From positions 1 through 64,000 of IMG/VR virus record IMGVR_UViG_3300042556_001828: a stretch of 64,000 nt of DNA. One strand, 5' to 3'. This document shows, one piece after another, positions 7,165 through 61,722 of this stretch (its first letter is position 1; each line of letters starts with the position of its first letter). The DNA is from a virus. Below the pieces are notes generated by a model. That model made no database searches. It saw nothing but the letters and a program-made list of their open reading frames with translations, and was not told where the DNA came from. A program made the position numbers and the translations under genes.

Positions 7165-7209
7165 AGTTCACCTAAGTGTTGTGAAGTTGACTGCTTAACT
7201 AATTTGAGA

Positions 7210-10200
7210 TCAGACCACCAAGTGCAGCTCAATGTTGTTGAGCGGCGCCGGGACAACAAGGTCAAGAACGATTTCAATACGATCCTTCAGCAGCGGATGA
7301 ATCTGCAGCTTGCGGATACTACCGCTGATGAGCTGCGACCCAAGCTCTTCTGTGTAACCGTTACTCGACAGGAAATCGATCACGGCTGTGACTTCGTATT
7401 TCAGCCGTGCGACCATGCCCGGTTGCGCGTTGGTGCGGCCGATAAACGGACGCAGGCGGCGCAGGAACAGGTACGACATGCTATCCACGTTGCGGCGGAT
7501 CATCTCTTCCCGACGATTCAGGTCGAGGTTGTCCGTCGTCAGCGCATGCCGCGTGAACGGCGTGCCGTCCTTGTCTTCAGTCACGATCCACGTTCCCGCC
7601 TCGGCAAGCCGATTAAGCTGCGTTTCGTTGAAGTACTTGTACGACCGGCTGTAGTCGTCAAAACCGGCGACTTCCACGTTCGTCAGCGGCTGGTGGGGCA
7701 CAACACCCGACACCAAACCAGCCAGCGCGGCCGACAGGTAATAGCCGGGCTGAACTGTGCCAGCCTCGCCAACCTGATCGGGCCACACTGCGCACACGCG
7801 ACGATTCGACAGCGAACCAGCCTGTTGCACAATGTCGTCAACGACTTCGTTGCGAGTACGGTTGTGATAGATCTCAACGCGCTGCGGCACGGTCACGGCG
7901 ACGTCGCCGCCCGAGTACAACAGCAGTGTCGATTCCGAAACAACCGCGTCTACAACGTATTCTTCGTATTGCTCTTCACCGAAACCGTCAACAGTGTAGT
8001 TATACCGAACGACGTCGCCCGGACGCACGTCGTTGGTGATGAAATAACCGTTGCCCGACGTGACCGTAAGCCGCGTGTACTGCGTGTTGGTCGCATTCGG
8101 ATCATCCGACAATGTCGCCAGCACGGGGTCGACTACTTCTTCGCCAAGCACGCCTGCGATCAGCGCGCCCTGACCAGCAACCTTCGCTACCGGGTGCGCC
8201 TTCACGGCGAAGAACCCAGCCTTCCAGTTGTTGGCGATCTCGTTCGACTCGCCGCCGATGTGCGCCGCCCACAGGTTCTGCACCCTGCGGTCGAACGTCA
8301 TCGGGACAAGGTTGTACATGTCGTCGCGACCCTTGATGCGCTCAAGCACTTGCGCCCATTTGGCGAGGTCCGGTCCGAGCGAGCGGCCTTCCTCGTCAAA
8401 CAGTTCGGGATCGGCAACCGCGGTGTACTTCACAACTGTACCATTGCTGTTAGAGAGCGCCTTGTACACGCCCCATTTCAGCGGGTTATCGGGGTCAAGC
8501 TGGCCCTTGATCTGGTCGAGGTTAGCCACGTCGCTGATCGAGTTGACCTCGTCGGCCAGCTCAGCCAGCCACTCGCGGTACTCGACGTACACCTTGCCAG
8601 CCATGACGTTCAGCGGCTGCTCAGCGCCGGCGCTTGTCCACTCAGGGTGGTAAGCGACGATGCCTTCTTGCACGCAGATCTGGGTATCCTCGTACCAGAA
8701 GTTCGTCATCGGCGCGAAGCCAATGCGGTTCTTCGAGATCTGGATATCGTCCTTGATGAACAGCTTGAGGTCCATGTCCTCACCGCTGATCAACTGGCAG
8801 GTTGCCGTAGCTGTTACCGACCCGCCGCCGGCGGGCGGCGCCGCAATCGTAATAGTCGGGGCAACGGTGTAACCGGCGCCACGATTTGTTACGGTGATGC
8901 CAACAACCTTACCGGCGTTGTCGCCAGTACCGAGCACAGCCGTGCCAGTAGCTGTCGCAGCGCCAACAACACCTTCACCCGGAGCCGAGAACGTTACCGC
9001 GGGCACAGTGCCGTATCCGCCGCCGACATTCGTGATGCTGATCGGGCCCACCTTGTCGACCGGCACGTTGTCCTGCGTCAGCAGTGCAACCGGCAGGTCG
9101 TCGCGGAGGATAAGCTTGCGCACCGGGCCAGCCTGACTGGAATTCACGGTGATGTACCACTTGTCGCCCTTGCGCAGACCGGGCACAGCGTAATCGTCTT
9201 CTTGACCGTCGGTGAACGACTTAAACTTCACCTTCACGCCGTTCGTGCCGATGTTTACGCTGACCGCGTTGCCACCGACGCCGTCGCCAGCCACTTCAGT
9301 CGGGCCGGAGAAATCGAGGCCCTTGACGGTGCGCACGGTGATCTCGGGGAGATCAGCCCACACGCCGCCCTTGGTGCACTCGATGACGTAAGTGTCGTTC
9401 TTGGCACCAGCGTAGGCACCCAGAATATCAAGGTCGCCCATCACGCCGTTCACGGACTCACCAGTCGCGTTAACGCCGTCGGCGTCCGACACCGCTTTGA
9501 CCTTTTCGTAGGTCTGCTTAACGTCAAACTTCCACTTCTGGCCGACCACGAACTGGTCGAGGTTGACTGTCGTGAAACGTACCGACAGGCCGCGGGTGCC
9601 GATAAAGGTCACGCCATCAGCATCGTCGAAATCATTCGGCTGAATTTCAGCCACGTCGTCGGTGCCACTGGCAGACGTGACGCGCAGACGCGCGGCAGCG
9701 CAACCAGCCACCGAACTCTTAACAACTTCGACAACGTACTCTTCCTCGACGTAACCGGCGGCAAGGCCGTCATAATCGTTGGCGCCTTCGTCCTCAGCAT
9801 CCAGCACGGTCACTGCCACGCTGTTGTCAACGCCATCAATTTGCGAAACTGTAACGTCAACGCCGTTAACGCTTAAGGCTGTATAACTGTCTTGGTTGTT
9901 TACGTCAGCCGTCGCCGGCAGAATGCGCGACGGCACGAGGTCGCTGGCAAAGCCAGTGACGTACGTGCTAAGCACAGTCTCTTCGCAGTCGTTGTCGGCG
10001 CTTACGCTCCGAAGCTGAACGACGTCGCCGAGCTGTACGTCACGATCAAAAAACACACCGGATCGCGGGTAGGCCGCGCCGTTCGACTTGAACGACAGCG
10101 TGCTGGACTGAATCCAGTTCATCTTGCCCGGGACGGCAGTGATAGTTGTATCACTCTCGCCGAGATTGTGCACGTAATATTGCAGCATGGCGTCGTCGAT

Positions 10201-10443
10201 GTGAACCTTCACATACGGAAGGTCAACAACCGAACCCGGCTGGCGCTGCGGCCACGGATAGCATGTGTCGTTCAGCCGGTCGTACGTGCCGAGCAGCGTG
10301 TGCTTCTTTTCATCCGTGTTGCTGTAACGATGGAGAACGGCGTGAGGGCCGGCGATGTGAGCGCGCAGCGGCTCCGTGATCTCGGTCGGGACGATCTTGA
10401 ATTCTTGGAAAACGAGAACTTGGGGTTTTACGTAGCTCGACAT
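7210..10443 (-). CDS. Contractile tail sheath protein
   Basis: 1077 aa. N-terminal YVKPQVLVFQEF and a sheath-like C-terminal domain (LNRLAEAGTWIV...RHALTT...IEIVLDLVVPAPLNNIELHLVV), followed by the tube gene. Confidence 0.85.
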   Translation of the reverse strand: MSSYVKPQVLVFQEFKIVPTEITEPLRAHIAGPHAVLHRYSNTDEKKHTLLGTYDRLNDTCYPWPQRQPGSVVDLPYVKVHIDDAMLQYYVHNLGESDTTITAVPGKMNWIQSSTLSFKSNGAAYPRSGVFFDRDVQLGDVVQLRSVSADNDCEETVLSTYVTGFASDLVPSRILPATADVNNQDSYTALSVNGVDVTVSQIDGVDNSVAVTVLDAEDEGANDYDGLAAGYVEEEYVVEVVKSSVAGCAAARLRVTSASGTDDVAEIQPNDFDDADGVTFIGTRGLSVRFTTVNLDQFVVGQKWKFDVKQTYEKVKAVSDADGVNATGESVNGVMGDLDILGAYAGAKNDTYVIECTKGGVWADLPEITVRTVKGLDFSGPTEVAGDGVGGNAVSVNIGTNGVKVKFKSFTDGQEDDYAVPGLRKGDKWYITVNSSQAGPVRKLILRDDLPVALLTQDNVPVDKVGPISITNVGGGYGTVPAVTFSAPGEGVVGAATATGTAVLGTGDNAGKVVGITVTNRGAGYTVAPTITIAAPPAGGGSVTATATCQLISGEDMDLKLFIKDDIQISKNRIGFAPMTNFWYEDTQICVQEGIVAYHPEWTSAGAEQPLNVMAGKVYVEYREWLAELADEVNSISDVANLDQIKGQLDPDNPLKWGVYKALSNSNGTVVKYTAVADPELFDEEGRSLGPDLAKWAQVLERIKGRDDMYNLVPMTFDRRVQNLWAAHIGGESNEIANNWKAGFFAVKAHPVAKVAGQGALIAGVLGEEVVDPVLATLSDDPNATNTQYTRLTVTSGNGYFITNDVRPGDVVRYNYTVDGFGEEQYEEYVVDAVVSESTLLLYSGGDVAVTVPQRVEIYHNRTRNEVVDDIVQQAGSLSNRRVCAVWPDQVGEAGTVQPGYYLSAALAGLVSGVVPHQPLTNVEVAGFDDYSRSYKYFNETQLNRLAEAGTWIVTEDKDGTPFTRHALTTDNLDLNRREEMIRRNVDSMSYLFLRRLRPFIGRTNAQPGMVARLKYEVTAVIDFLSSNGYTEELGSQLISGSIRKLQIHPLLKDRIEIVLDLVVPAPLNNIELHLVV

Positions 10444-11407: not shown

Positions 11408-12670
11408 TTAAATCGCCCAGAAGTCATTTTTGTCCGCTTCTTTGGCCGGTTTTGTCTGCACAGGTATGTTACGCGACGCACTTGGCTTTAATACAGGTGC
11501 GACGTCGGCCGCGTTGCTCATAATAGCGGCCGGGGCTGTCACTGTGAGCGCCTGCACGTCTGGGCCGTAATCGCCGACACGTTCAAATAACAAAACGTAA
11601 TTACCGGGATTGAGCTTTAAACCTGTGTCCCAACGCCCGCTTCCTGCCGTGTTTGCCCGCGCAATCGCGACATCACGGGCTGGAAAACTGGGTTGCGCCG
11701 CGGCATAGACGGCCGCTGGAAACACGTATACTGTCGCCCCTTCAATTGGGCAGCCGGCGCCATTGTAATAAGCTAACGTATCGGGCCCGCCGTAGTTATG
11801 GTCTACAAGCACGCTCCCGGCGCCTACAATTGGTCGCCTGTATACCGGTGTTTCTGCTGGCGCGCCGGTAACGTCTAACGCGTAAATTGGGTTGCTAAAC
11901 GGCATTAAACCCAGCTGCACGTTATACACAATGGGTACGTTACGTAGCGCCGCAATGATCTGAATTGATTCCACCAGCCAGCGCTCATCACTGGCGGCGT
12001 TAACCCAGACGTCATTTTTATTTAGCGCCGGAAATCCGATTACGCGGGCTGTGATATATGGATTGTCGCGTGTTGTGCCTTTAAGCTGCTCGTCAACTTG
12101 TTCCGTAATCGTCGGCAGCGACAGGTCCCAGCACTGCAGTTCCAGCGGCGGATGATAGCCAACCCTAAACCCGGTACCTTGGCAGACGGGGCAGTCCGAG
12201 TCTGTGATTTCTTGAGTTAGCTGGTCACGGCAGCGCGGACACGGCTCACCAAAACGCATTGGTTTGACTAAATAGCCGGGCGTCGCAACGAGCCTATTGC
12301 GCACTTGTTCTTTGCGAATAATCTCACGCGACAGCGCCCAGTCGTGCTCGTTTAGTTCGCCGAAACAGCTGGCCGGTTGCGAGACGTATGTTTCCGCCGG
12401 TGTTGTGAGCGTGACGCGGTAATGGCTGAGTAAATCGTAGCCAGAGTCGTGCCAAGCCGGGTCATAGGCTACAAAGCCGTTGGTAACAGGCGGGCCAATG
12501 TTTACCCAGTCGTTGGCGTTGCGCAGCCCTGTTTTGCCGAACTGCAGCTGGAATACATACGGTCCCGGCTGCTTAAAATCTGTTTCAAGCTGCCACCAGA
12601 CACGGGTAACGCCGCGGACCATATGATCCACAGATACGCGGCGAAAAGGGAATATGCGCTGTTGCGACAT
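11408..12670 (-). CDS. Putative neck/head-closure protein with a Zn finger
   Basis: 420 aa with CPRC...CPVCQGTGFxxGY, lying after the adaptor gene. Confidence 0.55.
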   Translation of the reverse strand: MSQQRIFPFRRVSVDHMVRGVTRVWWQLETDFKQPGPYVFQLQFGKTGLRNANDWVNIGPPVTNGFVAYDPAWHDSGYDLLSHYRVTLTTPAETYVSQPASCFGELNEHDWALSREIIRKEQVRNRLVATPGYLVKPMRFGEPCPRCRDQLTQEITDSDCPVCQGTGFRVGYHPPLELQCWDLSLPTITEQVDEQLKGTTRDNPYITARVIGFPALNKNDVWVNAASDERWLVESIQIIAALRNVPIVYNVQLGLMPFSNPIYALDVTGAPAETPVYRRPIVGAGSVLVDHNYGGPDTLAYYNGAGCPIEGATVYVFPAAVYAAAQPSFPARDVAIARANTAGSGRWDTGLKLNPGNYVLLFERVGDYGPDVQALTVTAPAAIMSNAADVAPVLKPSASRNIPVQTKPAKEADKNDFWAI

Positions 12671-12672
12671 GT

Positions 12673-13692
12673 CTAGTACCGAATACGAATAGCGTCACTG
12701 TAAGAGCTGTACTTGTACGTTGACGAAACCTCGCTGTAACACCCCTCAAGATTAATGCTGGCTTTTGTCGCCCGCACCCAGTCTTTGTACGCCTGCCAGC
12801 GCGCTTGTGCCGCGCGTTCGTAATTCGCTTCTTTGTTCTGGTCGTCGACAGACATGCCGCCGGCTGTATAGCCCAGTTGATTGCGGCGAAATTGCTCCGC
12901 GACCATCATGAACAAGTTGGCGCAAATCCCTTCGAGCCAATGATATCTAAACGGAAAATTCTGCGTTGTGTACACAGCGTCAATTGGCGGCGGGATCTCG
13001 TTCCAGTACATCACAGGGCGCGTAATAGCCAGCGCAATCTCGGCGTCGTCGAACATGAAGTTATCCAGCAAAAAGCTTTCGCTGGGGCTTGAGTCGCGCA
13101 AATGTAGCCGGATCTCAGCAATACTGGGCGGGCCGCCGTAGCCAGCTTGCTCGTTGCCAAACGTGCTGCGCGCAATAACCACAGAGAATGTGTTGGAAAA
13201 AATGACGCAGCGGGCTGTGCCGGCGTCGGCCGGCGCCGTAACAAGGGCCATTTCGCCGTAATAGATGCCCGGAATACCAACCATGTTGGCGCCAAGCTGT
13301 GCCGTTACTTGGCCCGTGGCGGCGTCTGTAACGGTCGCGGGCACTTCAACCGGCGCGTTTCCAACCCCCAGAGACAGCTGCTCCTTGATGCGAAATACGA
13401 CGGCGTAGGGATTATTTGGCGGCGTACTCGGACCAAAACCGGCGCCTGTCAGGTCAACCGGTGCGCCGGCATTGTCGTGCAGCTGCCACGTAATCGTCGC
13501 GCACTGCCCCTGCGTCAACGACACAGATCGCATGCGCGACAGGTTTGGCTTGCCGTTGACCGTCGACACATTTGAGCTGATGACGTTCTGCCCGATTGCA
13601 GCAACCGGTGGCTGCGGCTCTTGCCCGGTGGTGTCTGTGTTATTGCAACATGTCACAATTGGGTGCGGCGCAGGCGTGGCAATAACTACCAT
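12673..13692 (-). CDS. Putative head-tail adaptor with an N-terminal Ig/BppU-like domain
   Basis: C-terminal EIRLHLRD...LLDNFMFDDAEI...WNEIPP...RNQLGYTAGGMSVDD, located downstream of the capsid genes. Confidence 0.55.
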   Translation of the reverse strand: MVVIATPAPHPIVTCCNNTDTTGQEPQPPVAAIGQNVISSNVSTVNGKPNLSRMRSVSLTQGQCATITWQLHDNAGAPVDLTGAGFGPSTPPNNPYAVVFRIKEQLSLGVGNAPVEVPATVTDAATGQVTAQLGANMVGIPGIYYGEMALVTAPADAGTARCVIFSNTFSVVIARSTFGNEQAGYGGPPSIAEIRLHLRDSSPSESFLLDNFMFDDAEIALAITRPVMYWNEIPPPIDAVYTTQNFPFRYHWLEGICANLFMMVAEQFRRNQLGYTAGGMSVDDQNKEANYERAAQARWQAYKDWVRATKASINLEGCYSEVSSTYKYSSYSDAIRIRY

Positions 13693-19505: not shown

Positions 19506-20906
19506 TTACGACAGGAGATCTTGTTCTGTTTGACGATTACGTAGTAGCGACGAATCGCGGTCAGCGCGCAGCTTGTCCATTTCGAGCAGCTGCTTTACGT
19601 CAAAGTCGCCCATTTCGCCGGCCTGCAGGCGCTTGCGCATCATGGCCTGCATAACAGCTGGAGAATCACCAAGACTGGGCGCCGTGTCAGAGATCTCGTT
19701 GTACGCCATCGCCACATCGTGCGGGTCGTAACCGGAGATCACGGGGTCGTTCAGCATCAAGTCATGAATAGTACCTTGCGATCTGATATCGCGCAGCGCC
19801 AGCTCGTGCTCGGGGTCGGTAAGTTTGCCGTACTGATCTTTTACAACATCTTTGTTTGTTTGCGGCGCGTCAAACATAAGTCCAGACAAACCTGATGGTT
19901 TTTGCGGTGCGCCAGCCATCCGTTTAGCCACGTTAACAGCCGGCGCTTTGAAAAAATCTTTTAAAGTCATTGTCGGTTCCGGCGCTGGTGCATGCGGCGG
20001 TCTGGGTGCGGCTTCTTTCAGCGTCAGGGGCGCTTCGACCGGGCTGTACAGGATCGACCCTGTAAGAAACTCTGGTACTTCTTTCTTAGTCGGCGCCGAA
20101 GCTGTTTTGATATTATTAGCCGCTTTTTGAGCCGTGTTGTAGTCTTCTACAGCGTTTAACACGTTCTCGACAAGCTGGCACGGGACTGGGTTGCCAATAT
20201 ACATTTCTCGCGTGGCCGCTTGCTTGGTCACATGCGGATACACGGCAGCTACTTTGTTCAACACCATTTCGCCGTCGTTGCCGAGCCGCATGCTCACTTC
20301 GCGCACAGCGTCGCCGAACGACATGTTGCCGGGAACGCGGAAATACTCGCAAAGCTTTTCCATCTCGGCGGCAGCTTTCTGGTACGCCGCGCTAGCGACT
20401 CGCCGTACTTCTTCAGCCGCCCGCTTTTCAGCGACCTTCTGGCTGTAAGCTCGCTCAACAGCAGCTTGTTCGTCACGCGGAGCTGGCACCCATGTTTTGG
20501 CCGGCAGGACTGCTTGCGCGGCAGCAGCCTTGTCCATCTCAGCCTTGCGCCGGCCAAGAAAACCCATCGGCGATACGGCATACTCGGTCGACACAACGCT
20601 GGACTGCTCAATCGCGCTGGATGTCTTTACCTGCTTGGGGTACAGCGCTTCCATGACCGCATCGGCGTTCGCCAGCTGGAAATCCGCCGACTTGTCGAAT
20701 GTGTTCTCGCCCTGTTCGCGCTGCTTGGTGGTGCGGCCAGTGTTGTAGGCGTGCACCATGAGATTGATGTGCCCGGCCGGGATATTGGCGTCAGACGCGC
20801 TCTTGATAATGGCGTCGTTCGGCGTCGAGCCCGCGTTGACAAGGCTTGCGGCGCGCTCGATAGCACTGATCAGTTTCTGCTCAGCTTCTTTATTTAGTGC
20901 CCGCAT
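19506..20906 (-). CDS. Putative internal head protein
   Basis: 466 aa, helical, with repeated VKTSS, DKAAA, TKQAA, IKTAS and LKEAA. Confidence 0.65.
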   Translation of the reverse strand: MRALNKEAEQKLISAIERAASLVNAGSTPNDAIIKSASDANIPAGHINLMVHAYNTGRTTKQREQGENTFDKSADFQLANADAVMEALYPKQVKTSSAIEQSSVVSTEYAVSPMGFLGRRKAEMDKAAAAQAVLPAKTWVPAPRDEQAAVERAYSQKVAEKRAAEEVRRVASAAYQKAAAEMEKLCEYFRVPGNMSFGDAVREVSMRLGNDGEMVLNKVAAVYPHVTKQAATREMYIGNPVPCQLVENVLNAVEDYNTAQKAANNIKTASAPTKKEVPEFLTGSILYSPVEAPLTLKEAAPRPPHAPAPEPTMTLKDFFKAPAVNVAKRMAGAPQKPSGLSGLMFDAPQTNKDVVKDQYGKLTDPEHELALRDIRSQGTIHDLMLNDPVISGYDPHDVAMAYNEISDTAPSLGDSPAVMQAMMRKRLQAGEMGDFDVKQLLEMDKLRADRDSSLLRNRQTEQDLLS

Positions 20907-21837
20907 TGTTTGTCTCCGGGAAGTGCAGTCCTTGAATTTCGGTCTTGTTCGTTAGCGCGCCGCCAGTAGCAAGCGTCATTAACTCGTCGTTGCGTAACTC
21001 CGCTGCGCCATCATCAAAAGGTAACATTTTTATAGCTGCGGAATCCAGTTTTGTCGCTACTTTGAACGGTAGGGACGCCAGCATGGCGCCGATATTTTCG
21101 ACAATTGTACCGTGCGCTTTACTGGCGCTTTCCGTCGTACGCTCGATTTCAACGTATTTTACAAACGAGTCAATAAGCGCCAATTGCGTGTGGGTATTGA
21201 TCTGGACCGTCAATGTAGCCAGCGCCGCCTTGTATTTCATTGTATTGATCGCGAAGTCTTGGAAGAAACCGGAGACTTCGTCTGGCGTGTCCGGGCGCTT
21301 GGTTGCGGTAAATTTGTTAATTACCGCATTTAGAACGTGCGAGCCGCCGTGATATCCAAGTAATTTCCAGAGTAGGTCGTAGTGCCGTTCTTGCAGCCCG
21401 CGGGTGACGGCGTCGGCCATTACCACGTTAACCATGTAGTCTGTGTGGTTAACTTTGTCGCGAATATCGAAAAAGACGTTAGCGTAGGCTGAAATAACAG
21501 CCGGGCTAACGCCGACTTTCTCCGCGATTTCATCGTCTGTCTCGCCGGCAATAATCCGGGCTTCGATACCCCAGCGGGTCGGCGCCTTATCCTCGGCCCA
21601 CATCGAGTGCGCCCAGAATAAATCGCTGTCGCGCTCTAACAGGGCGTAAATTGCGTCAGGGCGGTTGTTTGCCTGCTCAAACCGCCGTTTCAGCCGCACG
21701 GCCCGGCGAATCCACTCAAAACCGTCCGGCCCGTCAACCGCGCGCGAAGCTCGTTTGCCGCCGCCGTCAATTTGTACAGCCCGCAGCCAGCGCCAGTTTG
21801 GCGCACGCCGGGGGCTATTTTTAAATGCGTTCAGCAT
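20890..21837 (-). CDS. Hypothetical protein
   Basis: 315-aa ORF tightly packed in the operon. Confidence 0.75.
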   Translation of the reverse strand: MLNAFKNSPRRAPNWRWLRAVQIDGGGKRASRAVDGPDGFEWIRRAVRLKRRFEQANNRPDAIYALLERDSDLFWAHSMWAEDKAPTRWGIEARIIAGETDDEIAEKVGVSPAVISAYANVFFDIRDKVNHTDYMVNVVMADAVTRGLQERHYDLLWKLLGYHGGSHVLNAVINKFTATKRPDTPDEVSGFFQDFAINTMKYKAALATLTVQINTHTQLALIDSFVKYVEIERTTESASKAHGTIVENIGAMLASLPFKVATKLDSAAIKMLPFDDGAAELRNDELMTLATGGALTNKTEIQGLHFPETNNAGTK

Positions 21838-26148: not shown

Positions 26149-28023
26149 TCAGGGCTTCCACCCACTTGTCGTTCCGGTCACGCCAAAGTTTTCGCCTTGT
26201 GCCAGCGCCGGAACATAACTGCTACCGGCGGTATTGCTCGTTAAACCGCGGTGTACGCTGTTCAGCAGGCCTTTTTCTTGGTACGACCCGAGCATGCGGG
26301 TCATCCAGTCAGGATCGTTGGAGATGTTCGACATGCCGCGTACCATTTCGGGCTGAAACGGCGGCGGCTCTCTGTGCGCTTGAATATTTGTAATGCCGTG
26401 CTGGCCCAAGGTTTTAACAACGTTTTTTGTGATTGGCGTGCCGACGGAATAATGCAGCGCGGGCTGTTCCAGATAGTGCCCAGAAAGCGTACTCGGCGCG
26501 CCGGCTACGCTCCCGTCGCGCGGCGTCCAGTTTCGCTCCAACATCGAATACGGCACGATATCGTCAGGGGAGTAGTCGCCGTGCTCGTCCGTCATGCGCA
26601 CGTGGTTAATCAAGCCGCGCGAAAGCAACTCAATGTTTCTGCGGTGGGCTGTAATACCGCTATTTTGCATCACCTGCCGCATCGCTTGGACAAAATAGCG
26701 GCGGCCTTCACCCACGCCTTTATGGCGGACAATTTCAGCTGGGTTCGGCATACCCTCCGAAATTGTGTCACCAGCTTCGATCTCGTCACCCTTTTTAACC
26801 GTAACGCCGCGGTCCGTTGGGACATAATGGTCTTGACCGTTAATTTGCACATAAAAGCCGCCCTGTGGCGCAGGACGCACTTCTTGGACATGCCCATCTG
26901 CCTGAGCGTGTGTTGCCCCGCCGGGAAACTTCTTCGGCACCTGTACAAGCGCGTTGAGCGCTTTAAAACCAGAAATCCCGCCTGCGCCACCGACGCCGCC
27001 AGAGTGCTTGGAGCTAATCTGACTTTGTGTGACAGGCTCTGAAAGCGCCTGCGCGGCTGCAATACCCACATAGTCTCCGACAGGCGGCAGATGGCCTTTT
27101 TCGCGATAGCCGACGTCATTTGCATAGACACCGCCGTCTTCTGGGCCGCCGACAATTGGGCTGCGCACTAAGATATCTTTAACGCCCATCTCTTTGATGT
27201 CGCGCATGATTTTGGGCGTCAGCACAGTATTGCGCTTGTACGGCCCTACGGGTCGCGACAGCATTGCGCCCTCGTTGTCGGGGTCGTCTATGTCCGTGGG
27301 AAAACCGCGCTCGTGGGCGTTGGCTAGGCGCTCTTGGTCTTGCTCGTCTTGGTCCGTGACAAGCAGTCTGTGCGCCATCTGCGTAAGCTGCTTGCCGTAG
27401 AACCCGGCGTCAGCTGTGGCGGTCTTCAGGTCAATTACACCCTTGCGGGTGCCGAACGCGCCGGCAAAGTACTCCACGGGCGTTAAGCCTTGGGCGTATC
27501 CGCGCATAACAGGAATTGGAATAGGCTCGCCGCGGTGGTCGAGATACTGCATGTCGGCGCCAAGGATCGAGTTCAGCTGGAACTTGTTGCCCACGCCGGA
27601 TCCAGCAATCTGGTGCGCTAACGGATTATCGTGCCCGTGGGCCTCGTTATACACATCATCCACAAGCTGCCGCTGCGCTTCCGACGCCAGCTTGAGTATT
27701 TTCGCATTGCGCTGCTCGTCGTTGAGGCCCCTATCCGCCAGAATCTGCCGCAACTGCTGTTTTACTTTCAGCTGCGTGTGCTGCGCCGCCAAACTCGGCC
27801 GCACGTCTTTCAGGCCGAACGATAAGCCGTTTGTTGTGTACGCGGAATCAAGCGCCACGTCATGAAGCTTTTTCATGACTTCGCGGTATTTTTCCGGGTA
27901 TTTCTTGGCTAATTCTGTCGCCAGCGCGCCCGTGTTTTTCTTGTTCAAAACGCGCGTATAGTCCCGCATGTCTTCCGGCAGCGCGTCATTAACCAGCAAC
28001 TGACCTAGCGTTGTTTTCAACAT
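26149..28023 (-). CDS. rpoC: DNA-directed RNA polymerase beta' subunit, C-terminal half
   Basis: TTLGQ, the bridge helix GLTPVEYFAGAFGTRKGVIDLKTATADAGF and the trigger loop GIAAAQALSEPVTQSQISSKHSGG all align with bacterial RpoC motifs. Confidence 0.9.
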   Translation of the reverse strand: MLKTTLGQLLVNDALPEDMRDYTRVLNKKNTGALATELAKKYPEKYREVMKKLHDVALDSAYTTNGLSFGLKDVRPSLAAQHTQLKVKQQLRQILADRGLNDEQRNAKILKLASEAQRQLVDDVYNEAHGHDNPLAHQIAGSGVGNKFQLNSILGADMQYLDHRGEPIPIPVMRGYAQGLTPVEYFAGAFGTRKGVIDLKTATADAGFYGKQLTQMAHRLLVTDQDEQDQERLANAHERGFPTDIDDPDNEGAMLSRPVGPYKRNTVLTPKIMRDIKEMGVKDILVRSPIVGGPEDGGVYANDVGYREKGHLPPVGDYVGIAAAQALSEPVTQSQISSKHSGGVGGAGGISGFKALNALVQVPKKFPGGATHAQADGHVQEVRPAPQGGFYVQINGQDHYVPTDRGVTVKKGDEIEAGDTISEGMPNPAEIVRHKGVGEGRRYFVQAMRQVMQNSGITAHRRNIELLSRGLINHVRMTDEHGDYSPDDIVPYSMLERNWTPRDGSVAGAPSTLSGHYLEQPALHYSVGTPITKNVVKTLGQHGITNIQAHREPPPFQPEMVRGMSNISNDPDWMTRMLGSYQEKGLLNSVHRGLTSNTAGSSYVPALAQGENFGVTGTTSGWKP

Positions 28024-28049
28024 AGAGCGTATCCGGCGCTAAGCAGTGT

Positions 28050-28256
28050 TCAGTCAATAAACGTAACCACAGGTACTGTTTCAATCCCCGCGAGTTTCAA
28101 AATACCCGGGAAATCTTTTTGGCTGGCGTCTGAATACACAATTCCCTCAGACATATGCAGCGCGACAAAGATTGGGTTTCCATTGTCATCTTCGATCACA
28201 ACGGTGTGTGCCAGTTGCTCTGCCGGCTGCAAGTTATGGTGGGTTTTAACCCGCAT
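28050..28256 (-). CDS. Small hypothetical protein
   Basis: 68 aa between the RNAP genes, overlapping the stop of the upstream gene. Confidence 0.55.
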   Translation of the reverse strand: MRVKTHHNLQPAEQLAHTVVIEDDNGNPIFVALHMSEGIVYSDASQKDFPGILKLAGIETVPVVTFID

Positions 28257-39628: not shown

Positions 39629-40459
39629 TCACGTCTTGGGAACTAACACGTACGGTCGGCCATTGATAACAATAGTGCCGCCGACGCGCAATGAGGCGTC
39701 TTGGGTAATCGCGTACGGCTTGGTCCGCTTGCCGTACAGTTTTACGATCTCCTCAACGTCGCCCTTCTGCGGCGCAGTAACGTTCGGATCGTAGTACGGC
39801 GCCATCAGGTTGCCGTTGCTCAAATGCGGCAAACCCAGCGCGTGGCCCAATTCGTGGCAGATCACCGCCACGGCCATGTTGAAGCTCCATGCCTCGGCCT
39901 CGTCAAACATCTGATCCAGCTGCACGTTCTCCGCCACGCCGCACGGCAGCTCGCTCCACGCCAGTGTGCCGCCGCGGTCATCTAACCCGTTTGCTCGACC
40001 CACACCCGACTTGGCGTAAATGTTTGCTTTATTCGGCGTGTCCACGCGAGTGGGGTCGATGTCGCACACCTTGGCCCACTGCGAGAACGCAATGTCATAG
40101 GCCTCTTTCACCTGCTCGTCTGTCATGCCCGGCAGGGTAATCTCGTGGTGGTACGTGATCTTCGCCATCGGCCACTTGCACGGCGCACTGTTCGCCGCCG
40201 TGATGTTGAAGTCCGGCAGGCCGCACCGACGCTTATTGATATTATTGGCGGTCTTCGGCCCCACCACGCCCGTGGGATTCAGCCCGTGAAACGACTGAAA
40301 AGCCTTGATGGCCTTGGTCAGCTGCGTGCCCTTGAGCTTCTGCACGTCAGCCCACGACTTCGAGCCGAAATAGCCCAGATCGTAGAGTTTCTTCAGGATC
40401 TCTTGCGTGGGCAGCACATTCGCCGCCGGAATTGCGCGCTTTTTTGCTTTCTTGGCCAT
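39629..40459 (-). CDS. Matrixin (M10) metallopeptidase with a peptidoglycan-binding-like prodomain
   Basis: AIKAFQSFHGLNPTGVVGPKT, cysteine switch RCGLPD, HELGHALGLPH and Met-turn LMAPYY. Confidence 0.9.
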   Translation of the reverse strand: MAKKAKKRAIPAANVLPTQEILKKLYDLGYFGSKSWADVQKLKGTQLTKAIKAFQSFHGLNPTGVVGPKTANNINKRRCGLPDFNITAANSAPCKWPMAKITYHHEITLPGMTDEQVKEAYDIAFSQWAKVCDIDPTRVDTPNKANIYAKSGVGRANGLDDRGGTLAWSELPCGVAENVQLDQMFDEAEAWSFNMAVAVICHELGHALGLPHLSNGNLMAPYYDPNVTAPQKGDVEEIVKLYGKRTKPYAITQDASLRVGGTIVINGRPYVLVPKT

Positions 40460-40490
40460 GCGTTGCGTCCTTGCAAGCGAAAAGAAAAGA

Positions 40491-40895
40491 TTAGTCCGGT
40501 ACGTTCGCGAGGGCCAGCAGCTCATTGAGCGCCGCGTCCTCGGCAGTTTCTCCCAATTCATACATAACCGTCAGCATGGGATTCGGATCCCTTGGATTCA
40601 CCGGGTAATCAGGAAATTCTTCGCGCCACAGCTTGTTCACCCGGCGCCGCAAGCGCATCAGCTTCCGCGGCGGCAAGGTCCGAATGTTCCGCATGTCCTG
40701 CAGCAGTTCAGCTTTATTTTTGTTCTTGCAGTACGTGGCGATTTGAATGGCCAAAGAGATCATGCTGAGAATCAAAATAATGCCAAACTGCGCAGAGTTG
40801 TCCACGCGAAAAGACATCTCTGTCATGCACTTATCGCGCAGCTCGCGCAGGGCGGGCGACGCGTTCACTTTGGCTTCCAGCTCTTCCAGTTGCAT
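40491..40895 (-). CDS. Single-TM membrane protein
   Basis: FGIILILSMISLAIQIATYC followed by a basic region. Confidence 0.7.
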   Translation of the reverse strand: MQLEELEAKVNASPALRELRDKCMTEMSFRVDNSAQFGIILILSMISLAIQIATYCKNKNKAELLQDMRNIRTLPPRKLMRLRRRVNKLWREEFPDYPVNPRDPNPMLTVMYELGETAEDAALNELLALANVPD

Positions 40896-42384: not shown

Positions 42385-42648
42385 TTACCGATTAAACATG
42401 AATATGATGTCGAGCATAAAGCGCAGGAGCACCGCCGCCCACGCGAGTACGCCGCTGATAGCTAAAAAAAGCACAAACCCGCTCGACAGCACAACGGGGG
42501 CTAATTTATGCACCGGAATATTTTTGAGCACCCGCCACGCCTTGACGTAGTCCAGCGCGGAGAGCGGCTCAGGCTGCGGCACCGGGGTTGGTGTCGGCTT
42601 CGGCTTCGGCCAAATCTTGTTGCGCAACGTGTCGAACACATTCGGCAT
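42385..42648 (-). CDS. Small membrane protein
   Basis: PKPKPTPTPVP linker and a C-terminal TM segment. Confidence 0.5.
   Translation of the reverse strand: MPNVFDTLRNKIWPKPKPTPTPVPQPEPLSALDYVKAWRVLKNIPVHKLAPVVLSSGFVLFLAISGVLAWAAVLLRFMLDIIFMFNR
42451..42511 (-). terminator. Terminator-like element, third copy of hairpin-T7-AGCTATCAGCG
   Basis: GCATAAA..CCCG..CGGG-TTTGTGC-TTTTTTT-AGCTATCAGCGGC, matching the elements at 61130 and 61979. Confidence 0.55.
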
Positions 42649-42649
42649 G

Positions 42650-43816
42650 TTATTTCGGCCCTCCGGCCCAGCTGGAAATCTGGTTCAGCGCGCCAGAACC
42701 ATACTGCGAGATCAACTGGTCCTGCCACGATGGTCCGGGCATGTTGCCGCGAAACGCCTGCAGGGCCAATTGATATCTATATTTGGGGTCCAGCGCCGCC
42801 CGGTAGCGCTGCTGATTTTGCTGGGCCTGCAGGATGAAGTCCCCGCGCTGCTTGACTGTCTGCAAGTGATTCTGGACGTTCTCAAACACAGGCTTGTTGT
42901 AGTCGTACTTCAGCGGCCGCTGCAGCAACGACTGCGCGAGCTGCTGGGCGTACACGCTTTCGCTCATCTTCTCTACGAGCGTTTCTTTTTCGTAGTAGCG
43001 CGGGTCTTGGGACAGGTGATCCTTGGCAATTTCTTTGGCGACTTGATCATTGTCTGTGTGTTCGCGCTCATCTGCTTGTCCTTCTTGAAGGGCTTTGGTG
43101 GCAAATTCCCGGTCGGGCATATTATCGGCTTTTCCGCCATGTAACAGGTCTTTTTGTCCCGAGCGGGAAAGTTGGCTAGCCGCCTTCAACTCGCCGCGGC
43201 TCGATGCTTGAACAGGCATGGTGTTCTCGTCCGCGTTGCCCTTGCTCACGCTGTTGTGGCGCAGCACGTTCTTGCGGCGCACAGCCACGGTAATGTGAAA
43301 CGGCTCGTCGTCCTTGGGCATCGGAGATAAGCCGTAGCTCTTGCGCAGCGCAGACAGCGCGGGGCTTGTGACTTGCAGCGCCCAGACTTTGCTCACGCCG
43401 TCGACGTTGCGCACGTCGATTTCTTTCAGGGCGCCCAGCGCGTAGCCGAACATGTGGCCGCGCTCATTGATTTTGTTCGCGCCGATGGATGCGACCTCAT
43501 CGCCTGTCATGACCGATATATGCGCGTTTAACAGCTCGTTCGCCACGTTGGGCACGTTCATAACGCCCGCGGTGGGAAGTTCAGCGCCCGGGGCGGTCAA
43601 GGCGTCGAAGACACCCCGTACAAGGGCGTTGGGCACCGAGAGTAAAAGCCAGCCGGACTTAGAGACATACAGCCGGCCCGAAAGCGGCTGATTGGTGCTG
43701 GCCTGCTTGTCGCCCCGATAGAGCCAGCCCAGCGCATTGCCGGCAGCATACGCCGGATGTTCTTGCAGAAACTCAGGATCCCATGCCAGCGGATCAAGCG
43801 CTGATAAGCTGTCCAT
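42650..43816 (-). CDS. Multidomain protein: 2H phosphoesterase plus a DUF5661-like domain
   Basis: Two HxS/T motifs (AHISV, FHITV) and GGKAD...EREHTDND..AKEIAKDHLSQDPRYY. Confidence 0.7.
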   Translation of the reverse strand: MDSLSALDPLAWDPEFLQEHPAYAAGNALGWLYRGDKQASTNQPLSGRLYVSKSGWLLLSVPNALVRGVFDALTAPGAELPTAGVMNVPNVANELLNAHISVMTGDEVASIGANKINERGHMFGYALGALKEIDVRNVDGVSKVWALQVTSPALSALRKSYGLSPMPKDDEPFHITVAVRRKNVLRHNSVSKGNADENTMPVQASSRGELKAASQLSRSGQKDLLHGGKADNMPDREFATKALQEGQADEREHTDNDQVAKEIAKDHLSQDPRYYEKETLVEKMSESVYAQQLAQSLLQRPLKYDYNKPVFENVQNHLQTVKQRGDFILQAQQNQQRYRAALDPKYRYQLALQAFRGNMPGPSWQDQLISQYGSGALNQISSWAGGPK

Positions 43817-54742: not shown

Positions 54743-56722
54743 TTATAACGCAGGCGCAGAATATTCGCCGCAGGTAAAACTGGCGCTAACTTTCTCGGCT
54801 AATTGGGCGGGATTTTCTTTATGCCGGCTGCCGATTTCACGCAATAAGTTCCTGAACTCTTCGTTGAGTTTCTCTTTCTCGGCGGTAAGTCTTTCTAGGA
54901 CTTCGTCGCCCGTACGCTCGCGCTTGTAGCCCATGAGCTTGCCCAACAGACTGGGTTCTTCAGAGCTAGAGATATACCGCTGCACCGCTACGTTTTTGAG
55001 TTCCTCTGGTAAGCCAGCGTGGGAGTCAAAGCGCAGGCCTCTACCACGCGCCTGCTGCGTCCGGGCTTCGTTCCAGTGCGGGTCCATGAGCTGAATTAAG
55101 CTCGTGCCCTTGGTGGAAATACCCTCGGCGCCGGCAGGGCCAATGAGTAACGCCCTGAGCTTGCCGGCGTTGTAGGCATCGACGGCTGCTTGGCGCACCT
55201 TGGGAGAAACACCGCCGTGGAAGAACGCATGGGGCACGCCAGCCTGTGTTAAGCCAGCAGCGTAGGGGCCCAAGCCAGAATCCACAAAGTTGGAATAGAT
55301 AATAGCTTTCTTGCGCTCATCTGAGTCCAGCGTGCTCTTGAGGTTCTTGAACGCCTCCTGCATCTTGGCTGACTGCTGGAACGCTTTGAGGGGATCTCTA
55401 TCGGCCCGAAATGGCTGCGTGGATAAACCCACTTGGCGTAGGCCCGTCATAAAGCTATTTAATTTAGCTAGTTCCTGCCGAGATAGCGGGAACTCTTTAT
55501 CTAGCTTCCACAAAAACCCCGGCGGAACTTTCGTGCGCACAGCTTTCTGGATGCGCTGCTGCTCTGCAGAAAGTGGTACCCGTATAGTCTGCTCGTTGAT
55601 ATTCACGCCCTCGGGAGTCTTGCTGGGCTGATAATCTACTTTGCCCTCCAGCAAACTCCTGAGCTTGGGGCCATTTCTAATAATGGGCTTCATGCCCGGT
55701 GTCGCGCCATGCAGCCAGCCCCAGAGTCCCGGCCAGACTTTCTTGTAGCCCACGTACTCTTTCTCAAACTGGTCAGGCGTGATCTCCTGCTTGTTGAGCA
55801 TCGAGACAATGCTGGCCAGATCTTTGGGCTCATTGGTAATGGGCGTGCCAGTTAATAACATTAACCGGTCCGCGTTTTGGGCGGCCTGAAAAGCAGCGCG
55901 CGTACTGGCCGCGTCTGGATTGCGCAATCTGGCTGCTTCGTCCATGACCAGTGTCTCGGGCTGGTCTTTGAACTGCTTGCCCATGCCCAGCCCCGTGTAG
56001 CTCATGATCTCGGGCTGGCTGTCGGTGAATTTCTTCACTTCTTTCTGGAAGTTCCCCCTAAGACTAGCCGGGGCCACAATGCCGTAGCTCCCGCCGTGCT
56101 GCCTCTGGGCCGCTTCAGCCGCTGCAAGGGCTGAGAGACTCTTCCCAGAGCCCAGCCCGTGATAGACGAGCATACGGGGGTTCTCGCCAGTCACGCGGTC
56201 TGAGATGCGCTGCTGGTGGTCTTGCAGCTGGATGCCGGGAAGTAAGTCAGCTTGTTTACCCAAGCCTTGCACGTATTTCTGCATGGCTTTGCGCTGATAC
56301 GCGTCGAGCATCTCAGCCGTGGCGCCCGATTGCTCTGCCGGTACGAGCTTGCTGGGGTCGATTCCCCAGTTGCGCAGCGCCCAGCCACGTCGTGGCGTGG
56401 GATTATTAACAAAGGGGCCGCCGTGCCGCGCTTTGAAGCTTGCCCAGCGCTTGATCTGGCGTTCGTCTTCGTCTGGGATACGCCGGCCGCCTGAGTAGCG
56501 CTTGTACCACTGCGCCCAGCCCTTGGGATCGTGCTCTGACACCCATTCGGGCTTCCATGCGCCCAAGCTAGCGAGTCTGGGGCCTTGATTACGGTATAGC
56601 GCGTCGTACACGCCCAAGTTCTCAAGCTGCTCTGGTGTGTAGTCAGGGGTAAAGTCTACAGCGTGCTTTGCCCACGCCTTGCCCGCGGCGCTCGCAATGA
56701 TATCTGTATCGAGGTCGGGCAT
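54743..56722 (-). CDS. SNF2-like SF2 helicase with an extra N-terminal domain
   Basis: HGLGSGKS, MDEAARLRN, LLTGTP, EGIS, DPHWN and QARGRGLR. Confidence 0.88.
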   Translation of the reverse strand: MPDLDTDIIASAAGKAWAKHAVDFTPDYTPEQLENLGVYDALYRNQGPRLASLGAWKPEWVSEHDPKGWAQWYKRYSGGRRIPDEDERQIKRWASFKARHGGPFVNNPTPRRGWALRNWGIDPSKLVPAEQSGATAEMLDAYQRKAMQKYVQGLGKQADLLPGIQLQDHQQRISDRVTGENPRMLVYHGLGSGKSLSALAAAEAAQRQHGGSYGIVAPASLRGNFQKEVKKFTDSQPEIMSYTGLGMGKQFKDQPETLVMDEAARLRNPDAASTRAAFQAAQNADRLMLLTGTPITNEPKDLASIVSMLNKQEITPDQFEKEYVGYKKVWPGLWGWLHGATPGMKPIIRNGPKLRSLLEGKVDYQPSKTPEGVNINEQTIRVPLSAEQQRIQKAVRTKVPPGFLWKLDKEFPLSRQELAKLNSFMTGLRQVGLSTQPFRADRDPLKAFQQSAKMQEAFKNLKSTLDSDERKKAIIYSNFVDSGLGPYAAGLTQAGVPHAFFHGGVSPKVRQAAVDAYNAGKLRALLIGPAGAEGISTKGTSLIQLMDPHWNEARTQQARGRGLRFDSHAGLPEELKNVAVQRYISSSEEPSLLGKLMGYKRERTGDEVLERLTAEKEKLNEEFRNLLREIGSRHKENPAQLAEKVSASFTCGEYSAPAL

Positions 56723-61129: not shown

Positions 61130-61174
61130 CGCTGATAGCTAAAAAAAAGCGCAGAGGCCCTTGTGGGCGTGCGC
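61130..61174 (-). terminator. Intrinsic terminator with a conserved downstream AGCTATCAGCG
   Basis: GCGCA-C-GCCC-ACAA-GGGC-CTC-TGCGC-T8. Confidence 0.85.
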
Positions 61175-61669: not shown

Positions 61670-61722
61670 CTGAAAGCTATAGGTGGTTCACTATATATGC
61701 CCGGATTTCGACTTTTATTTAG
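61670..61722 (-). promoter_or_regulatory. Candidate phage promoter, copy 1
   Basis: CTAAATA-N14-GGCATAT-N3-GTG-N6-CTATAGCTTTCAG, with the same architecture as 62431-62482. Confidence 0.65.

Follow-up and report, generated by a model that had tools for sequence, protein, structure and literature searches.

Organization of the RNA polymerase locus

The window analyzed here is a stretch of 64,000 nucleotides of a 73-kb IMG/VR record (IMGVR_UViG_3300042556_001828), which is judged 36% complete and comes from an uncultured lake phage with a genome of ~200 kb. Positions 26149 to 34356 carry a gene for a fused RNA polymerase (RNAP) chain, two small open reading frames (ORFs), P0003 and P0004, and a separate gene for the C-terminal half of beta' (Table 1). 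A contig from a lake-metagenome run of another study covers this stretch in one piece with 116 substitutions and 0 gaps, and in two further runs, shorter contigs read across the fusion junction and both borders of the insert described below with 0 differences. No RNA dataset was listed among the sequencing runs that contain the sequence. The independent contig is thus gapless, with no joints or indels reported, which disposes of the concern raised in the initial annotation that the fusion might be an assembly artifact. Of 42 related loci in IMG/VR, 34 have their genes in the order fused gene, P0003-like, P0004-like, and beta'-C (of the other 8, 1 ends before beta'-C and 7 are cut short or too distant), and the two small ORFs lie between the RNAP genes in 35 of the 42. 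The four-gene order is also seen in Salmonella phage Arash and Vibrio phage D69. Megablast of the 8.2-kb stretch against a phage collection returned no match.

Table 1. Coordinates of the RNAP genes, their parts, and two further genes in the window
Feature	Position	Strand	Remarks
Fused RNAP gene (beta N-extein, intein, beta C-extein, short linker, beta' N-terminal half)	28912-34356	-	One open frame; 1814-aa precursor; ends after the catalytic DPBB
Beta N-extein, residues 1-411	33124-34356	-	Ends ...IDYLRTPE
Intein, 347 aa, residues 412-758, with LAGLIDADG homing-endonuclease domain	32083-33123	-	Between RTPE and S of beta
Beta C-extein, residues 759-1341	30334-32082	-	Rpb2_6/DPBB region; ends KFVNQLKAAGIN
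Linker of ~8 aa and beta' N-terminal half, residues 1342-1814	28915-30333	-	Zinc-ribbon cysteines absent
P0003, Pro/Ala-rich protein, 214 aa	28246-28890	-	Position and sequence conserved in the close clade, 48-69% identity
P0004, 68-aa protein	28050-28256	-	Conserved in the close clade, 43-65% identity
Beta' C-terminal half, 624 aa, starts MLKTTLGQ	26149-28023	-	Bridge helix and trigger loop
SNF2-family helicase, 659 aa	54743-56722	-	Homolog of Arash gp217
Major capsid protein homolog, 313 aa	14578-15519	-	Arash gp226, 30% identity, E = 4e-35

Downstream of the RNAP genes lie homologs of the major capsid protein gp226 of Salmonella phage Arash and of its virion proteins gp222 and gp218. With a capsid homolog nearby, the RNAP genes lie in a virion module, as had been proposed from the letters of the sequence, and in all relatives examined they stand between head genes. 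The remaining neighborhood is sparsely annotated: PHROGs searches with 20 neighboring proteins recovered one family with no assigned function, weak tail/sheath-like matches (7210-10443), and a weak endolysin match (39629-40561), and Pfam searches with 10 neighbors identified nothing beyond the SNF2 helicase, DUF6321, and a 2H phosphoesterase. The capsid protein homolog matched no Pfam family, and a 438-aa upstream ORF gave only sub-threshold leads in the ESM Atlas (0.79). We also considered TAGCTNTCAG as a genome-wide motif and rejected it: allowing 1 mismatch, there were 15 matches against 8.8 expected, a number reached by 6 of 100 shuffles and hence not significant.

A bacterial-type beta fused to the N-terminal half of beta'

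Pfam searches recovered RNA_pol_Rpb2_6 (PF00562; 2.6e-49) and RNA_pol_Rpb1_2 (PF00623; 5e-23) on the same 1814-aa chain. Phmmer searches against PDB sequences aligned residues 93-411 and 817-1341 to bacterial beta, the aligned region ending in KFVNQLKAAGIN (residues 1330-1341), and residues 1417-1810 to positions 142-540 of beta'. The frame is single and uninterrupted up to the catalytic GADFDGD (residues 1718-1724; nt 29185-29205), confirming the earlier observation that beta runs in frame into the N-terminal half of beta' through DFDGD. In this loop the catalytic Asn is replaced by Gly, the form NADFDGD being found in 17 of 116 family members. Among NCBIfam profiles, those of bacterial rpoB scored 263-279 bits with the fused chain (chain 1), against 97-98 bits for archaeal B; since these values fall far below the equivalog cut-offs, the protein is a divergent member of the bacterial-type RNAPs. 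The cellular-type assignment made in the initial annotation is supported: the enzyme is bacterial-type. The phmmer scores were similar, 188-233 bits, against the beta subunits of Clostridioides, Thermus, Bacillus, Mycobacterium, and E. coli, which suggests that chain 1 has no special affinity to one phylum.

The separate 624-aa chain (chain 2) matches RNA_pol_Rpb1_5 (PF04998; 2.6e-23) and aligns from its first residue to positions 663-1183 of Mycobacterium tuberculosis beta', spanning the bridge helix and the trigger loop. On the NCBIfam rpoC profile of 1147 positions, chain 1 ends at position 535 and chain 2 starts at position 548, so that the split is clean. The ORFs and these profile positions bear out the initial reading, in which beta' is broken just before TTLGQ and resumes two ORFs downstream.

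A mobile intein in the beta fork motif

Residues 412-758 of the fused ORF constitute an intein and not part of beta, a feature overlooked in the initial annotation. Its first residue, Cys1, is C412, block B reads VTPNH, and the C terminus ...CGN758 is followed by the Ser+1 residue S759. An alignment of 5 allelic or related inteins, one of them a 144-aa mini-intein, shows no variation at the C1, TxxH, and terminal N positions. Whereas inteins usually have His as the penultimate residue, this one has Gly (..WCGN), and the same holds for all 8 allelic homologs. Alignment with the corresponding proteins of Arash, Vibrio phage D69, and the homolog P0005 shows a clean 347-aa indel at RTPE|S; P0005 provides an empty site, although its exteins are 95.4% identical. 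Among the matches listed, 111 of 120 homologs have no insert of at least 50 aa, a count to be read in the light of the fact that only 9 homologs of >1600 aa were aligned for inserts and that shorter fragments may hide one. In 5 of the 8 intein-bearing homologs the inteins are more identical (85-89%) than the exteins (79-80%), as is expected for homing. The intein is mobile, and close relatives vary in having or lacking it.

The insert had no match at thresholds to the Pfam and NCBIfam intein profiles, LAGLIDADG_3 being reached only at E = 0.022, while this profile was recovered with related inteins of the family at 1.2e-6 and 8e-17; searched alone against PDB sequences, the intein gave only chance matches (E > 1), the solved inteins having no sequence match. 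A model of the intein, of mediocre quality (pLDDT 66, pTM 0.50, 5-sequence alignment), had as its best Foldseek matches in the PDB the TliVMA intein (E = 9.7e-13), PI-SceI, PI-PfuI, and I-DmoI, of which PI-SceI, TliVMA, and PI-PfuI likewise have LAGLIDADG and Hint splicing domains in one element. The motifs and the model together point to a class-1-like intein with a Hint fold and a LAGLIDADG domain, for which self-splicing is predicted. Inteins are dense in the family as a whole, large inserts being present, one or more per protein, in 118 of the 150 best representatives and distributed over at least 15 sites. In some representatives, "C-terminal extensions" of ~450 aa were considered as an unsplit beta' or a split intein and rejected, as they are inserts beside the catalytic loop that had been misplaced by the aligner; the same explanation applies to the apparent C-terminal extension of L037. 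Like the inteins in the second-largest RNAP subunit of eukaryotes and nucleocytoplasmic large DNA viruses, the intein of the window sits at a strongly conserved position close to the active-site cleft. Two inteins have been placed in the "fork" domain of Rpb2 (Goodwin 2006, PMC1635734).

Loss of cysteines and zinc sites

All 12 cysteines of the precursor lie within the intein, leaving 0 in the 1467 aa of the chain 1 exteins and 0 in the 624 aa of chain 2, as against a frequency of 1.03% in the ORF set of the window. In addition, 106 homologs free of an intein have 0 or 1 cysteine each. A mature enzyme devoid of cysteine, a trait missed in the initial annotation, can have neither of the Cys4 zinc sites of beta'. 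The proteins of Arash and D69 differ in this respect, for their beta'-C has 4 Cys at the position of the second zinc site, at which the beta'-C of the window has none.

Distribution of the layout and relation to known RNA polymerases

The family to which this fused and split RNAP belongs is very large. PF00562 and PF00623 occur together in 120 of 120 homologs among the matches listed, and of the best 150 representatives at 50% identity, all 150 match the junction region and none includes beta'-C. Hundreds of assemblies, as well as two cultured phage groups, keep the layout at identities of 24-96%. The first is represented by Arash, whose gp206 (1525 aa) and gp216 (606 aa) align end to end with the two chains of the window. 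The two phages share the fused beta-beta'N, the separate beta'-C, the position among head genes, the same capsid and virion homologs, and the absence of the zinc-ribbon cysteines from the N-terminal part of beta'; Arash further has a Sigma70_r3-containing protein. It differs in having no intein, in its sequence (~32% identity in chain 1 and 24% in chain 2), and in the position of the helicase, which adjoins beta'-C in Arash and lies 26 kb away in the window. The available text of the Arash paper (PMC10585845) has the chains annotated as "beta" and "beta'" and leaves the fusion and split unmentioned. The second group comprises Vibrio phages D69, D181, and D148, which have a 1527-aa fused gene, two small ORFs, and a 609-aa beta'-C and whose head and tail genes are syntenic; D69 genes 0261 and 0264 align end to end with the window chains. 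They differ in identity (~25-33%), in the absence of an intein, and in the 4 Cys retained in beta'-C, and their genes are unannotated in GenBank; our literature search found no paper on these three phages. The possibility, anticipated at the outset, that the architecture is already standard in a described clade therefore holds in part: it is standard in a sequenced clade with a published isolate, Arash, but no paper describing the fused/split layout was found in the literature searched.

Among other phage RNAPs, the mReC enzymes (Weinheimer and Aylward 2020, PMC7481178) are likewise from metagenomic aquatic Caudovirales, some of >200 kb, and their beta and beta' are reported to be bacterial-like and to branch apart from cellular enzymes. 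They were filtered by a NADxDGD motif and by matches to each COG of 800 aa or more, and their capsids match T4 gp23 (PF07068); compared by description, the RNAP of the window has the motif GADFDGD and its capsid protein has no Pfam match. In the main text of that paper, as available, none of the terms fused, fusion, split, intein, sigma, and virion is tied to mReC. The RNAPs of phiKZ and AR9 are also phage encoded and without alpha and omega (PMC7598289), and one of their two RNAP sets is reported to be packaged in the virion (PMC7598289). They are far more divergent, with beta in 2-3 pieces, two paralogous sets, and no sigma70 homolog (PMC7598289, PMC7824862), whereas the beta of the window is whole and fused, and its complete relatives have one set per genome and a sigma70-like gene. 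The earlier statement that phiKZ-type enzymes are split differently proved wrong for beta': their split follows the DPBB and coincides with the cyanobacterial one (Sokolova 2020, PMC7598289), in the same interdomain region as that of the window.

Among cellular enzymes, the RpoBC proteins of Helicobacter and Wolbachia (NF007172, NF011417) likewise have the C terminus of beta in frame with the N terminus of beta', but these chains, of ~2840-2890 aa, contain the whole of beta' and function together with alpha and omega; the window chain, with beta' cut after the DPBB, scores 332 bits against NF007172, for which the cut-off is 5372. The RpoC1 and RpoC2 proteins of cyanobacteria and plastids are broken in the same interdomain region after the DPBB, with beta as a separate gene. 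The residue at the break differs, however: chain 1 of the window ends at 553 of the 619 rpoC1_cyan positions, and chain 2 starts before TTLGQ, some 8-16 positions ahead of the RpoC2 profiles, whereas the cyanobacterial gamma break comes after the TTxGR segment.

Sigma, alpha, omega, and the small ORFs

Profile searches agreed with the initial annotation that no alpha, omega, or sigma gene is recognizable in the window. No match to alpha (PF01000) or omega (PF01192) was obtained in the window record or in 4 complete relatives of ~205 kb, both being sought by Pfam profiles only and with 14 of 14 control genomes matched; divergent analogs of these subunits, or recourse to host alpha, may nevertheless exist. 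The 73-kb record (36% complete) likewise yielded no sigma gene. However, all 4 complete relatives encode a sigma70-like protein (Sigma70_r3, 38.2 bits; cut-off 25.3), while PF04542 had 0 matches in them, the control genomes being matched. To speak of a two-chain enzyme, as was done initially, is thus an understatement, the Arash counterpart of the sigma70-like protein, gp10, being found in virions. Each of the complete relatives has a single Rpb1_2 locus, and the RNAP of the window is probably the only one of its phage.

These results bear on an alternative in which the core has further stable subunits, be they the 214-aa and 68-aa ORFs, other phage proteins, or host alpha and omega. The retention of P0003-like and P0004-like genes between the RNAP genes, the detection of Arash gp213 (214 aa, at the same position) as a virion protein, and the extra phage-specific subunit that the nonvirion RNAPs of phiKZ and AR9 each carry speak for it. 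Against this, P0003 is largely low-complexity Pro/Ala sequence, and neither P0003 nor P0004 has detectable similarity to the ORFs at the same position in Arash and D69 (P0003 and gp213 are both 214 aa long and are dissimilar) or a family match in Pfam, PHROGs, or NCBIfam; P0004 (68 aa) also had no usable match in the ESM Atlas. We therefore dropped the two as candidates for conserved RNAP subunits and consider additional core subunits of any kind unlikely.

A proposed phage-encoded, sigma-served, and packaged RNA polymerase

Taken as a whole, we favor the explanation that the phage has its own bacterial-type multisubunit RNAP, with a two-polypeptide catalytic core that would assemble without alpha and omega, be served by a sigma factor, and be packaged, and give it a probability of roughly 0.78. 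An 1814-aa precursor would be made, and the 347-aa intein, seated in the conserved fork motif of beta (RTPE|S), would remove itself by splicing. The spliced chain 1 of 1467 aa would comprise a compact beta, a linker of ~8 residues, and beta'-N through the Mg-binding GADFDGD loop, and the 624-aa chain 2 would bring the bridge helix and the trigger loop. The covalent link between beta and beta'N probably takes over from the alpha dimer and omega in assembly, no genes for these having been found in the complete relatives. Promoter recognition would probably proceed via the phage sigma70-like protein, encoded elsewhere in the genome. By analogy with Arash, the virion most likely contains the enzyme, the sigma-like factor, and the SNF2 helicase and delivers them along with the DNA, which would let transcription start independently of the host.

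The analogy derives from purified Arash virions, in which both RNAP chains, the sigma-like gp10, and the SNF2 helicase gp217 are reported among the most abundant proteins (PMC10585845): gp206 leads with 3516 spectra and 100% coverage, against 1210 for gp216 and 1333 for the major capsid protein. As gp217 both adjoins beta'-C and is abundant in these virions, the SNF2 helicase is a possible partner of the RNAP. The virion packaging suggested in the initial annotation is therefore plausible, and in the clade of the window it is supported, not proven, by this single isolate, which is ~32% (chain 1) and 24% (chain 2) identical.

These data could also be read as those of a nonvirion polymerase, made during infection for middle and late genes, with the position among structural genes reflecting co-expression only. 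The Arash authors themselves propose that abundant, highly expressed enzymes may simply be carried over and co-purify with the particles (PMC10585845), and the ribonucleotide reductases and RNA ligases also detected in those virions suggest some contamination; moreover, with one RNAP set per genome, the same enzyme must also work late. Yet gp206 is the top protein by spectra, well ahead of the major capsid protein, the RNAP genes lie between head genes in all relatives, and the loss of cysteines and zinc would, as we interpret it, fit an ejected protein, so that we regard an exclusively nonvirion role as rather improbable. The further alternative that assembly or frameshift errors produced the fusion, the split, or the 347-aa insert, or that the locus is a decaying capture of host rpoBC, might be prompted by the origin of the window in a metagenomic contig judged 36% complete but is effectively refuted by the independent contig free of indels, the recurrence of the layout in hundreds of assemblies and two cultured phage groups, the open frames with intact catalytic motifs, and the mass spectrometry of the fused Arash protein.

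Within the favored explanation of a packaged, sigma-served RNAP, we tentatively raise a more specific possibility, namely, a minimal sigma-dependent RNAP re-engineered for delivery through the phage tail. The fusion would free assembly from alpha and omega, the removal of cysteines and zinc would let the enzyme survive unfolding, the oxidizing periplasm, and refolding, and the enzyme might tolerate inteins, or even mature through their removal, since packaging would be confined to the spliced, cysteine-free form. Though we hold this scenario to be doubtful, if true it would constitute a third independent route to transcriptional autonomy in phages, beside the N4/T7-type single-subunit and the phiKZ-type fragmented enzymes, and the simplest among known RNAPs that have kept the use of a sigma factor.

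Implications

To our knowledge, no cellular RNAP does without an alpha-like platform for its assembly or without zinc sites in its largest subunit. The enzyme described here appears to lack both the platform and the zinc but retains a sigma70-type factor, and its catalytic regions of beta and beta' are nearly colinear; it would offer a minimal model from nature for the assembly of RNAP and for initiation with sigma. The RNAP of this fused/split family is not known to have been studied biochemically, and cultured relatives on Salmonella and Vibrio already put such experiments within reach. With so many inteins, the family also provides ample natural material for studies of homing and splicing. 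For the biology of the phages themselves, the findings suggest host-independent early transcription among freshwater phages of ~200 kb, a very abundant group.

Architecture of the RNAP locus

The minus strand carries every plausible gene of the window, whose parent IMG/VR record spans 73 kb with an estimated completeness of 36%, and the four ORFs of the RNAP locus lie consecutively at positions 26149 to 34356. Pfam searches placed a beta domain (RNA_pol_Rpb2_6) and the beta' catalytic domain (RNA_pol_Rpb1_2) in the single polypeptide of the first ORF (chain 1) and RNA_pol_Rpb1_5 in the 624-aa product of the last (beta'-C, chain 2). In searches of PDB sequences, bacterial beta aligns to chain 1 residues 93 to 411 and 817 to 1341, reaching the end of beta at KFVNQLKAAGIN (residues 1330 to 1341), and beta' 142 to 540 aligns to residues 1417 to 1810, with the Mg loop GADFDGD at residues 1718 to 1724 (window positions 29185 to 29205). 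The beta lobe region is compact, with about 140 residues lacking a counterpart (chain 1 residues 231 to 253 span Clostridioides difficile beta 265 to 406). Chain 2 aligns from its first residue (MLKTTLGQ) to Mycobacterium tuberculosis beta' 663 to 1183; on the NCBIfam rpoC profile, chain 1 stops at position 535 and chain 2 starts at 548, and therefore nothing has been lost at the break. The initial annotation, which described an in-frame beta/beta'-N fusion through DFDGD and a beta' broken before TTLGQ with its C-terminal half two ORFs downstream, is correct in every particular; its interpretation as a compact, possibly virion-packaged two-chain RNAP is supported in part.

The fusion is not an assembly artifact. 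The 8.2-kb RNAP stretch occurs nearly verbatim (at least half of the sampled words) in 18 lake or freshwater metagenome runs; 9 of the 20 listed run rows are possible sources of the record, and in the four runs compared that are not flagged as sources, no joints or indels were reported in the stretch. A single contig from a different study covers it entirely with 116 substitutions and 0 gaps, and contigs of two other runs cross both the beta/beta' junction (30283 to 30369) and the borders of an intein (32082/32083 and 33123/33124) with 0 differences.

Coordinates of the RNAP locus, its intein, and the Cys-free proteins of the window
Feature	Positions	Strand	Description
Fused RNAP ORF, chain 1	28912-34356	minus	1814 aa
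Intein	32083-33123	minus	Residues 412-758 of chain 1; insertion relative to Arash/D69 homologs
P0003	28246-28890	minus	214 aa
P0004	28050-28256	minus	68 aa
beta'-C, chain 2	26149-28023	minus	624 aa
Cys-free protein	1-2295	minus	765 aa, open-ended
Cys-free protein	20890-21837	minus	315 aa
Cys-free protein	42650-43816	minus	388 aa, 2H phosphoesterase domain and DUF5661

Distribution of the fused-and-split layout

Within the phage collection, only Salmonella phage Arash and three Vibrio phages gave genuine phage matches to beta'-C (24 to 25% identity), the remaining matches resembling bacterial rpoC. In both annotated regions (Arash and Vibrio phage D69), located among head genes, the fused gene (about 1525 aa) is followed by small ORFs and then by beta'-C (about 606 aa), and the window shares with them capsid and virion-protein homologs in identical order. 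Among 42 related IMG/VR loci, 34 have the fused gene followed in turn by P0003-like, P0004-like, and beta'-C genes; of the rest, one stops before beta'-C and seven are truncated or too distant. When the junction region was used in a word-indexed search, 1420 proteins were recovered (E ≤ 1e-5), with beta and beta' Pfam domains both present in all 120 listed. Searching the 50%-identity representatives exhaustively yielded 7759 matches (E ≤ 1e-3), of which the best 150 (45 to 62% identity) are all of the fused type, none with beta'-C in the same chain. The window RNAP is typical of its phage RNAP family, which is very large and known from sequence but not from biochemistry. The intervening P0003 consists mostly of Pro/Ala/Gly/Met repeats (PxDPAAMG-like) with conserved ends; its position between the two RNAP genes holds across the close clade, but it is unrelated to the same-position ORFs of Arash and D69.

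A mobile intein in the beta part

The initial annotation overlooked a mobile intein. Aligned with Arash gp206 and D69 0261, chain 1 shows one clean 347-aa insertion between ...RTPE and S(G/S)xxG, within the conserved beta fork motif. It has the hallmarks of an intein, namely, an N-terminal Cys, a block B VTPNH, and a C-terminal ...CGN followed by Ser; C1, T-x-x-H, and the terminal GN are invariant across five allelic or related inserts of relatives, one of them a 144-aa mini form that lacks the central domain. The usual penultimate His is replaced by Gly. These features suggest that the precursor undergoes protein splicing. The intein sequence matched no NCBIfam profile or PDB sequence, and LAGLIDADG_3 was barely detected (E = 0.022). 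An AlphaFold model of moderate confidence, built from the shallow five-sequence alignment (pLDDT 66, pTM 0.50), has as its best PDB matches the homing-endonuclease inteins TliVMA (E = 9.7e-13), PI-SceI, and PI-PfuI and the LAGLIDADG enzyme I-DmoI. The site is empty in the closest homolog, P0005, whose exteins are 95.4% identical, and five intein-bearing homologs are more alike in the intein (85 to 89%) than in the exteins (79 to 80%), as would be expected if the element spreads by homing.

In this family, the RNAP genes form a hot spot for inteins. Allelic inteins occur in 8 of the 120 listed homologs, one further homolog (P0123, 2551 aa) carries three at other sites, and 118 of the best 150 representatives, a set possibly biased towards long members, have 1 to 5 inserts of at least 100 aa, at 15 or more sites, with Cys...Asn borders followed by Ser or Thr. 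Among related loci, the beta'-C of L007 is interrupted by a 381-aa intein within AAAQAL|SEPVTQ (12316-13458), L044 carries two inteins, a mini-intein of 144 aa at the site used in the window (7165-7596) and another in GDKL (8731-9810), and L037 (7117-8172) is a further example. Ten of the 150 representatives (e.g., P0139, P0199, P0208, P0216, P0244, and P0162) have an insert of about 200 to 510 aa right at the catalytic DFDG(D) loop, with LAGLIDADG-like motifs inside and borders unlike the usual Cys...Asn|Ser (e.g., ending ...VVYD|T).

Cysteines, zinc sites, and the catalytic loop

The precursor has 12 cysteines, every one of them in the intein; Cys is absent from both its 1467 extein residues and the 624-aa chain 2. 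With the window's ORF set averaging 1.03% Cys, simple arithmetic puts the chance of this absence at the order of 4e-10. All 106 intein-less homologs have 0 or 1 Cys. The enzyme therefore cannot form either of the two Cys4 zinc sites known from bacterial beta'. Arash and D69 beta'-C retain four cysteines, whereas the aligned residues of chain 2 read VTDQDEQ... and ...GGVYANDVG; thus, the second site was lost within the family. Three other sizeable window proteins also lack Cys (see the table) and may be ejected proteins.

The catalytic loop reads GADFDGD as against the near-universal NADFDGD; the first residue is G in 98, N in 17, and A in 1 of 116 family proteins of >1400 aa. The Asn of bacterial RNAPs contacts the substrate ribose, and sugar discrimination by the GADFDGD enzyme may thus differ.

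Other subunits and candidate promoters

In four related genomes of about 205 kb, each with a completeness rating of 100%, profile searches recovered one beta' catalytic locus per genome and no alpha (PF01000), omega (PF01192), or sigma region 2, while control genomes gave matches. All four have an open frame of 270 to 306 aa weakly matching Sigma70_r4; in direct scans against Sigma70_r3 (cut-off 25.3 bits), the ORF of related locus L048 scored 38.2 bits and Arash gp10 scored 35.7 bits. No such gene was found in the window's own 73-kb record, but that record is a fragment. Of the alpha, omega, and sigma genes initially reported as unrecognizable in the window, alpha and omega were likewise not found by profile searches of the complete relatives, but a sigma70-like ORF is present in each.

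The element TAGCTNTCAG occurs exactly five times on the minus, coding strand, mostly at about 61 to 62.4 kb (42455-42464, 61132-61141, 61670-61679, 61983-61992, and 62431-62440). Allowing one mismatch, 15 matches against 8.8 expected are not above chance. The element may serve this RNAP as a phage promoter or be associated with terminators.

Probable virion packaging

According to the available text of the Arash study, gp206 is the most abundant protein of purified particles (3516 spectra, 100% coverage), alongside gp216 (beta'-C; 1210 spectra), gp10 (467), and the helicase gp217 (1148), although the authors warn that enzymes expressed at high levels might copurify (PMC10585845). A gp217 homolog with SNF2 domains (33% identity, E = 1e-69) lies at 54743 to 56722; its gene adjoins beta'-C in Arash but is 26 kb away in the window. 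By analogy, these data support the inference that the RNAP is packaged in the window's clade. A 650-aa protein at 59134 to 61086 matches DUF6321 (E = 4.9e-21).

Relationship to known RNAPs

In Helicobacter/Wolbachia-type RpoBC fusions, the fused chain contains the whole of beta', whereas chain 1 stops at rpoC position 535; the cyanobacterial split falls in the same interdomain region at a different residue. In the available text of the Sokolova review, phiKZ-type enzymes, in two sets and without sigma, have a fragmented beta and a beta' split at the cyanobacterial position (PMC7598289), so the initial contrast with them holds for beta but not for beta'. The multi-subunit-RNAP-encoding Caudovirales (mReC), known from metagenomes, encode bacterial-like forms of beta and beta', were selected for NADxDGD, and bear T4-like capsids; neither of the last two features fits the window, and the main text, as available, does not apply the terms fused, split, intein, sigma, or virion to mReC (PMC7481178). 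The lineage goes unmentioned in the available portions of a comparative jumbo-phage paper and a 2026 review. As to whether the architecture is already standard in a described clade, it is widespread in sequenced phages, but our literature search found no published description of the layout. A beta-beta' fusion and a beta' split following the DPBB domain are each known motifs; their combination here is undescribed in print as far as searched. To these are added a mobile intein, the total loss of Cys and zinc sites, an enzyme for which neither alpha nor omega was found, and a phage sigma.
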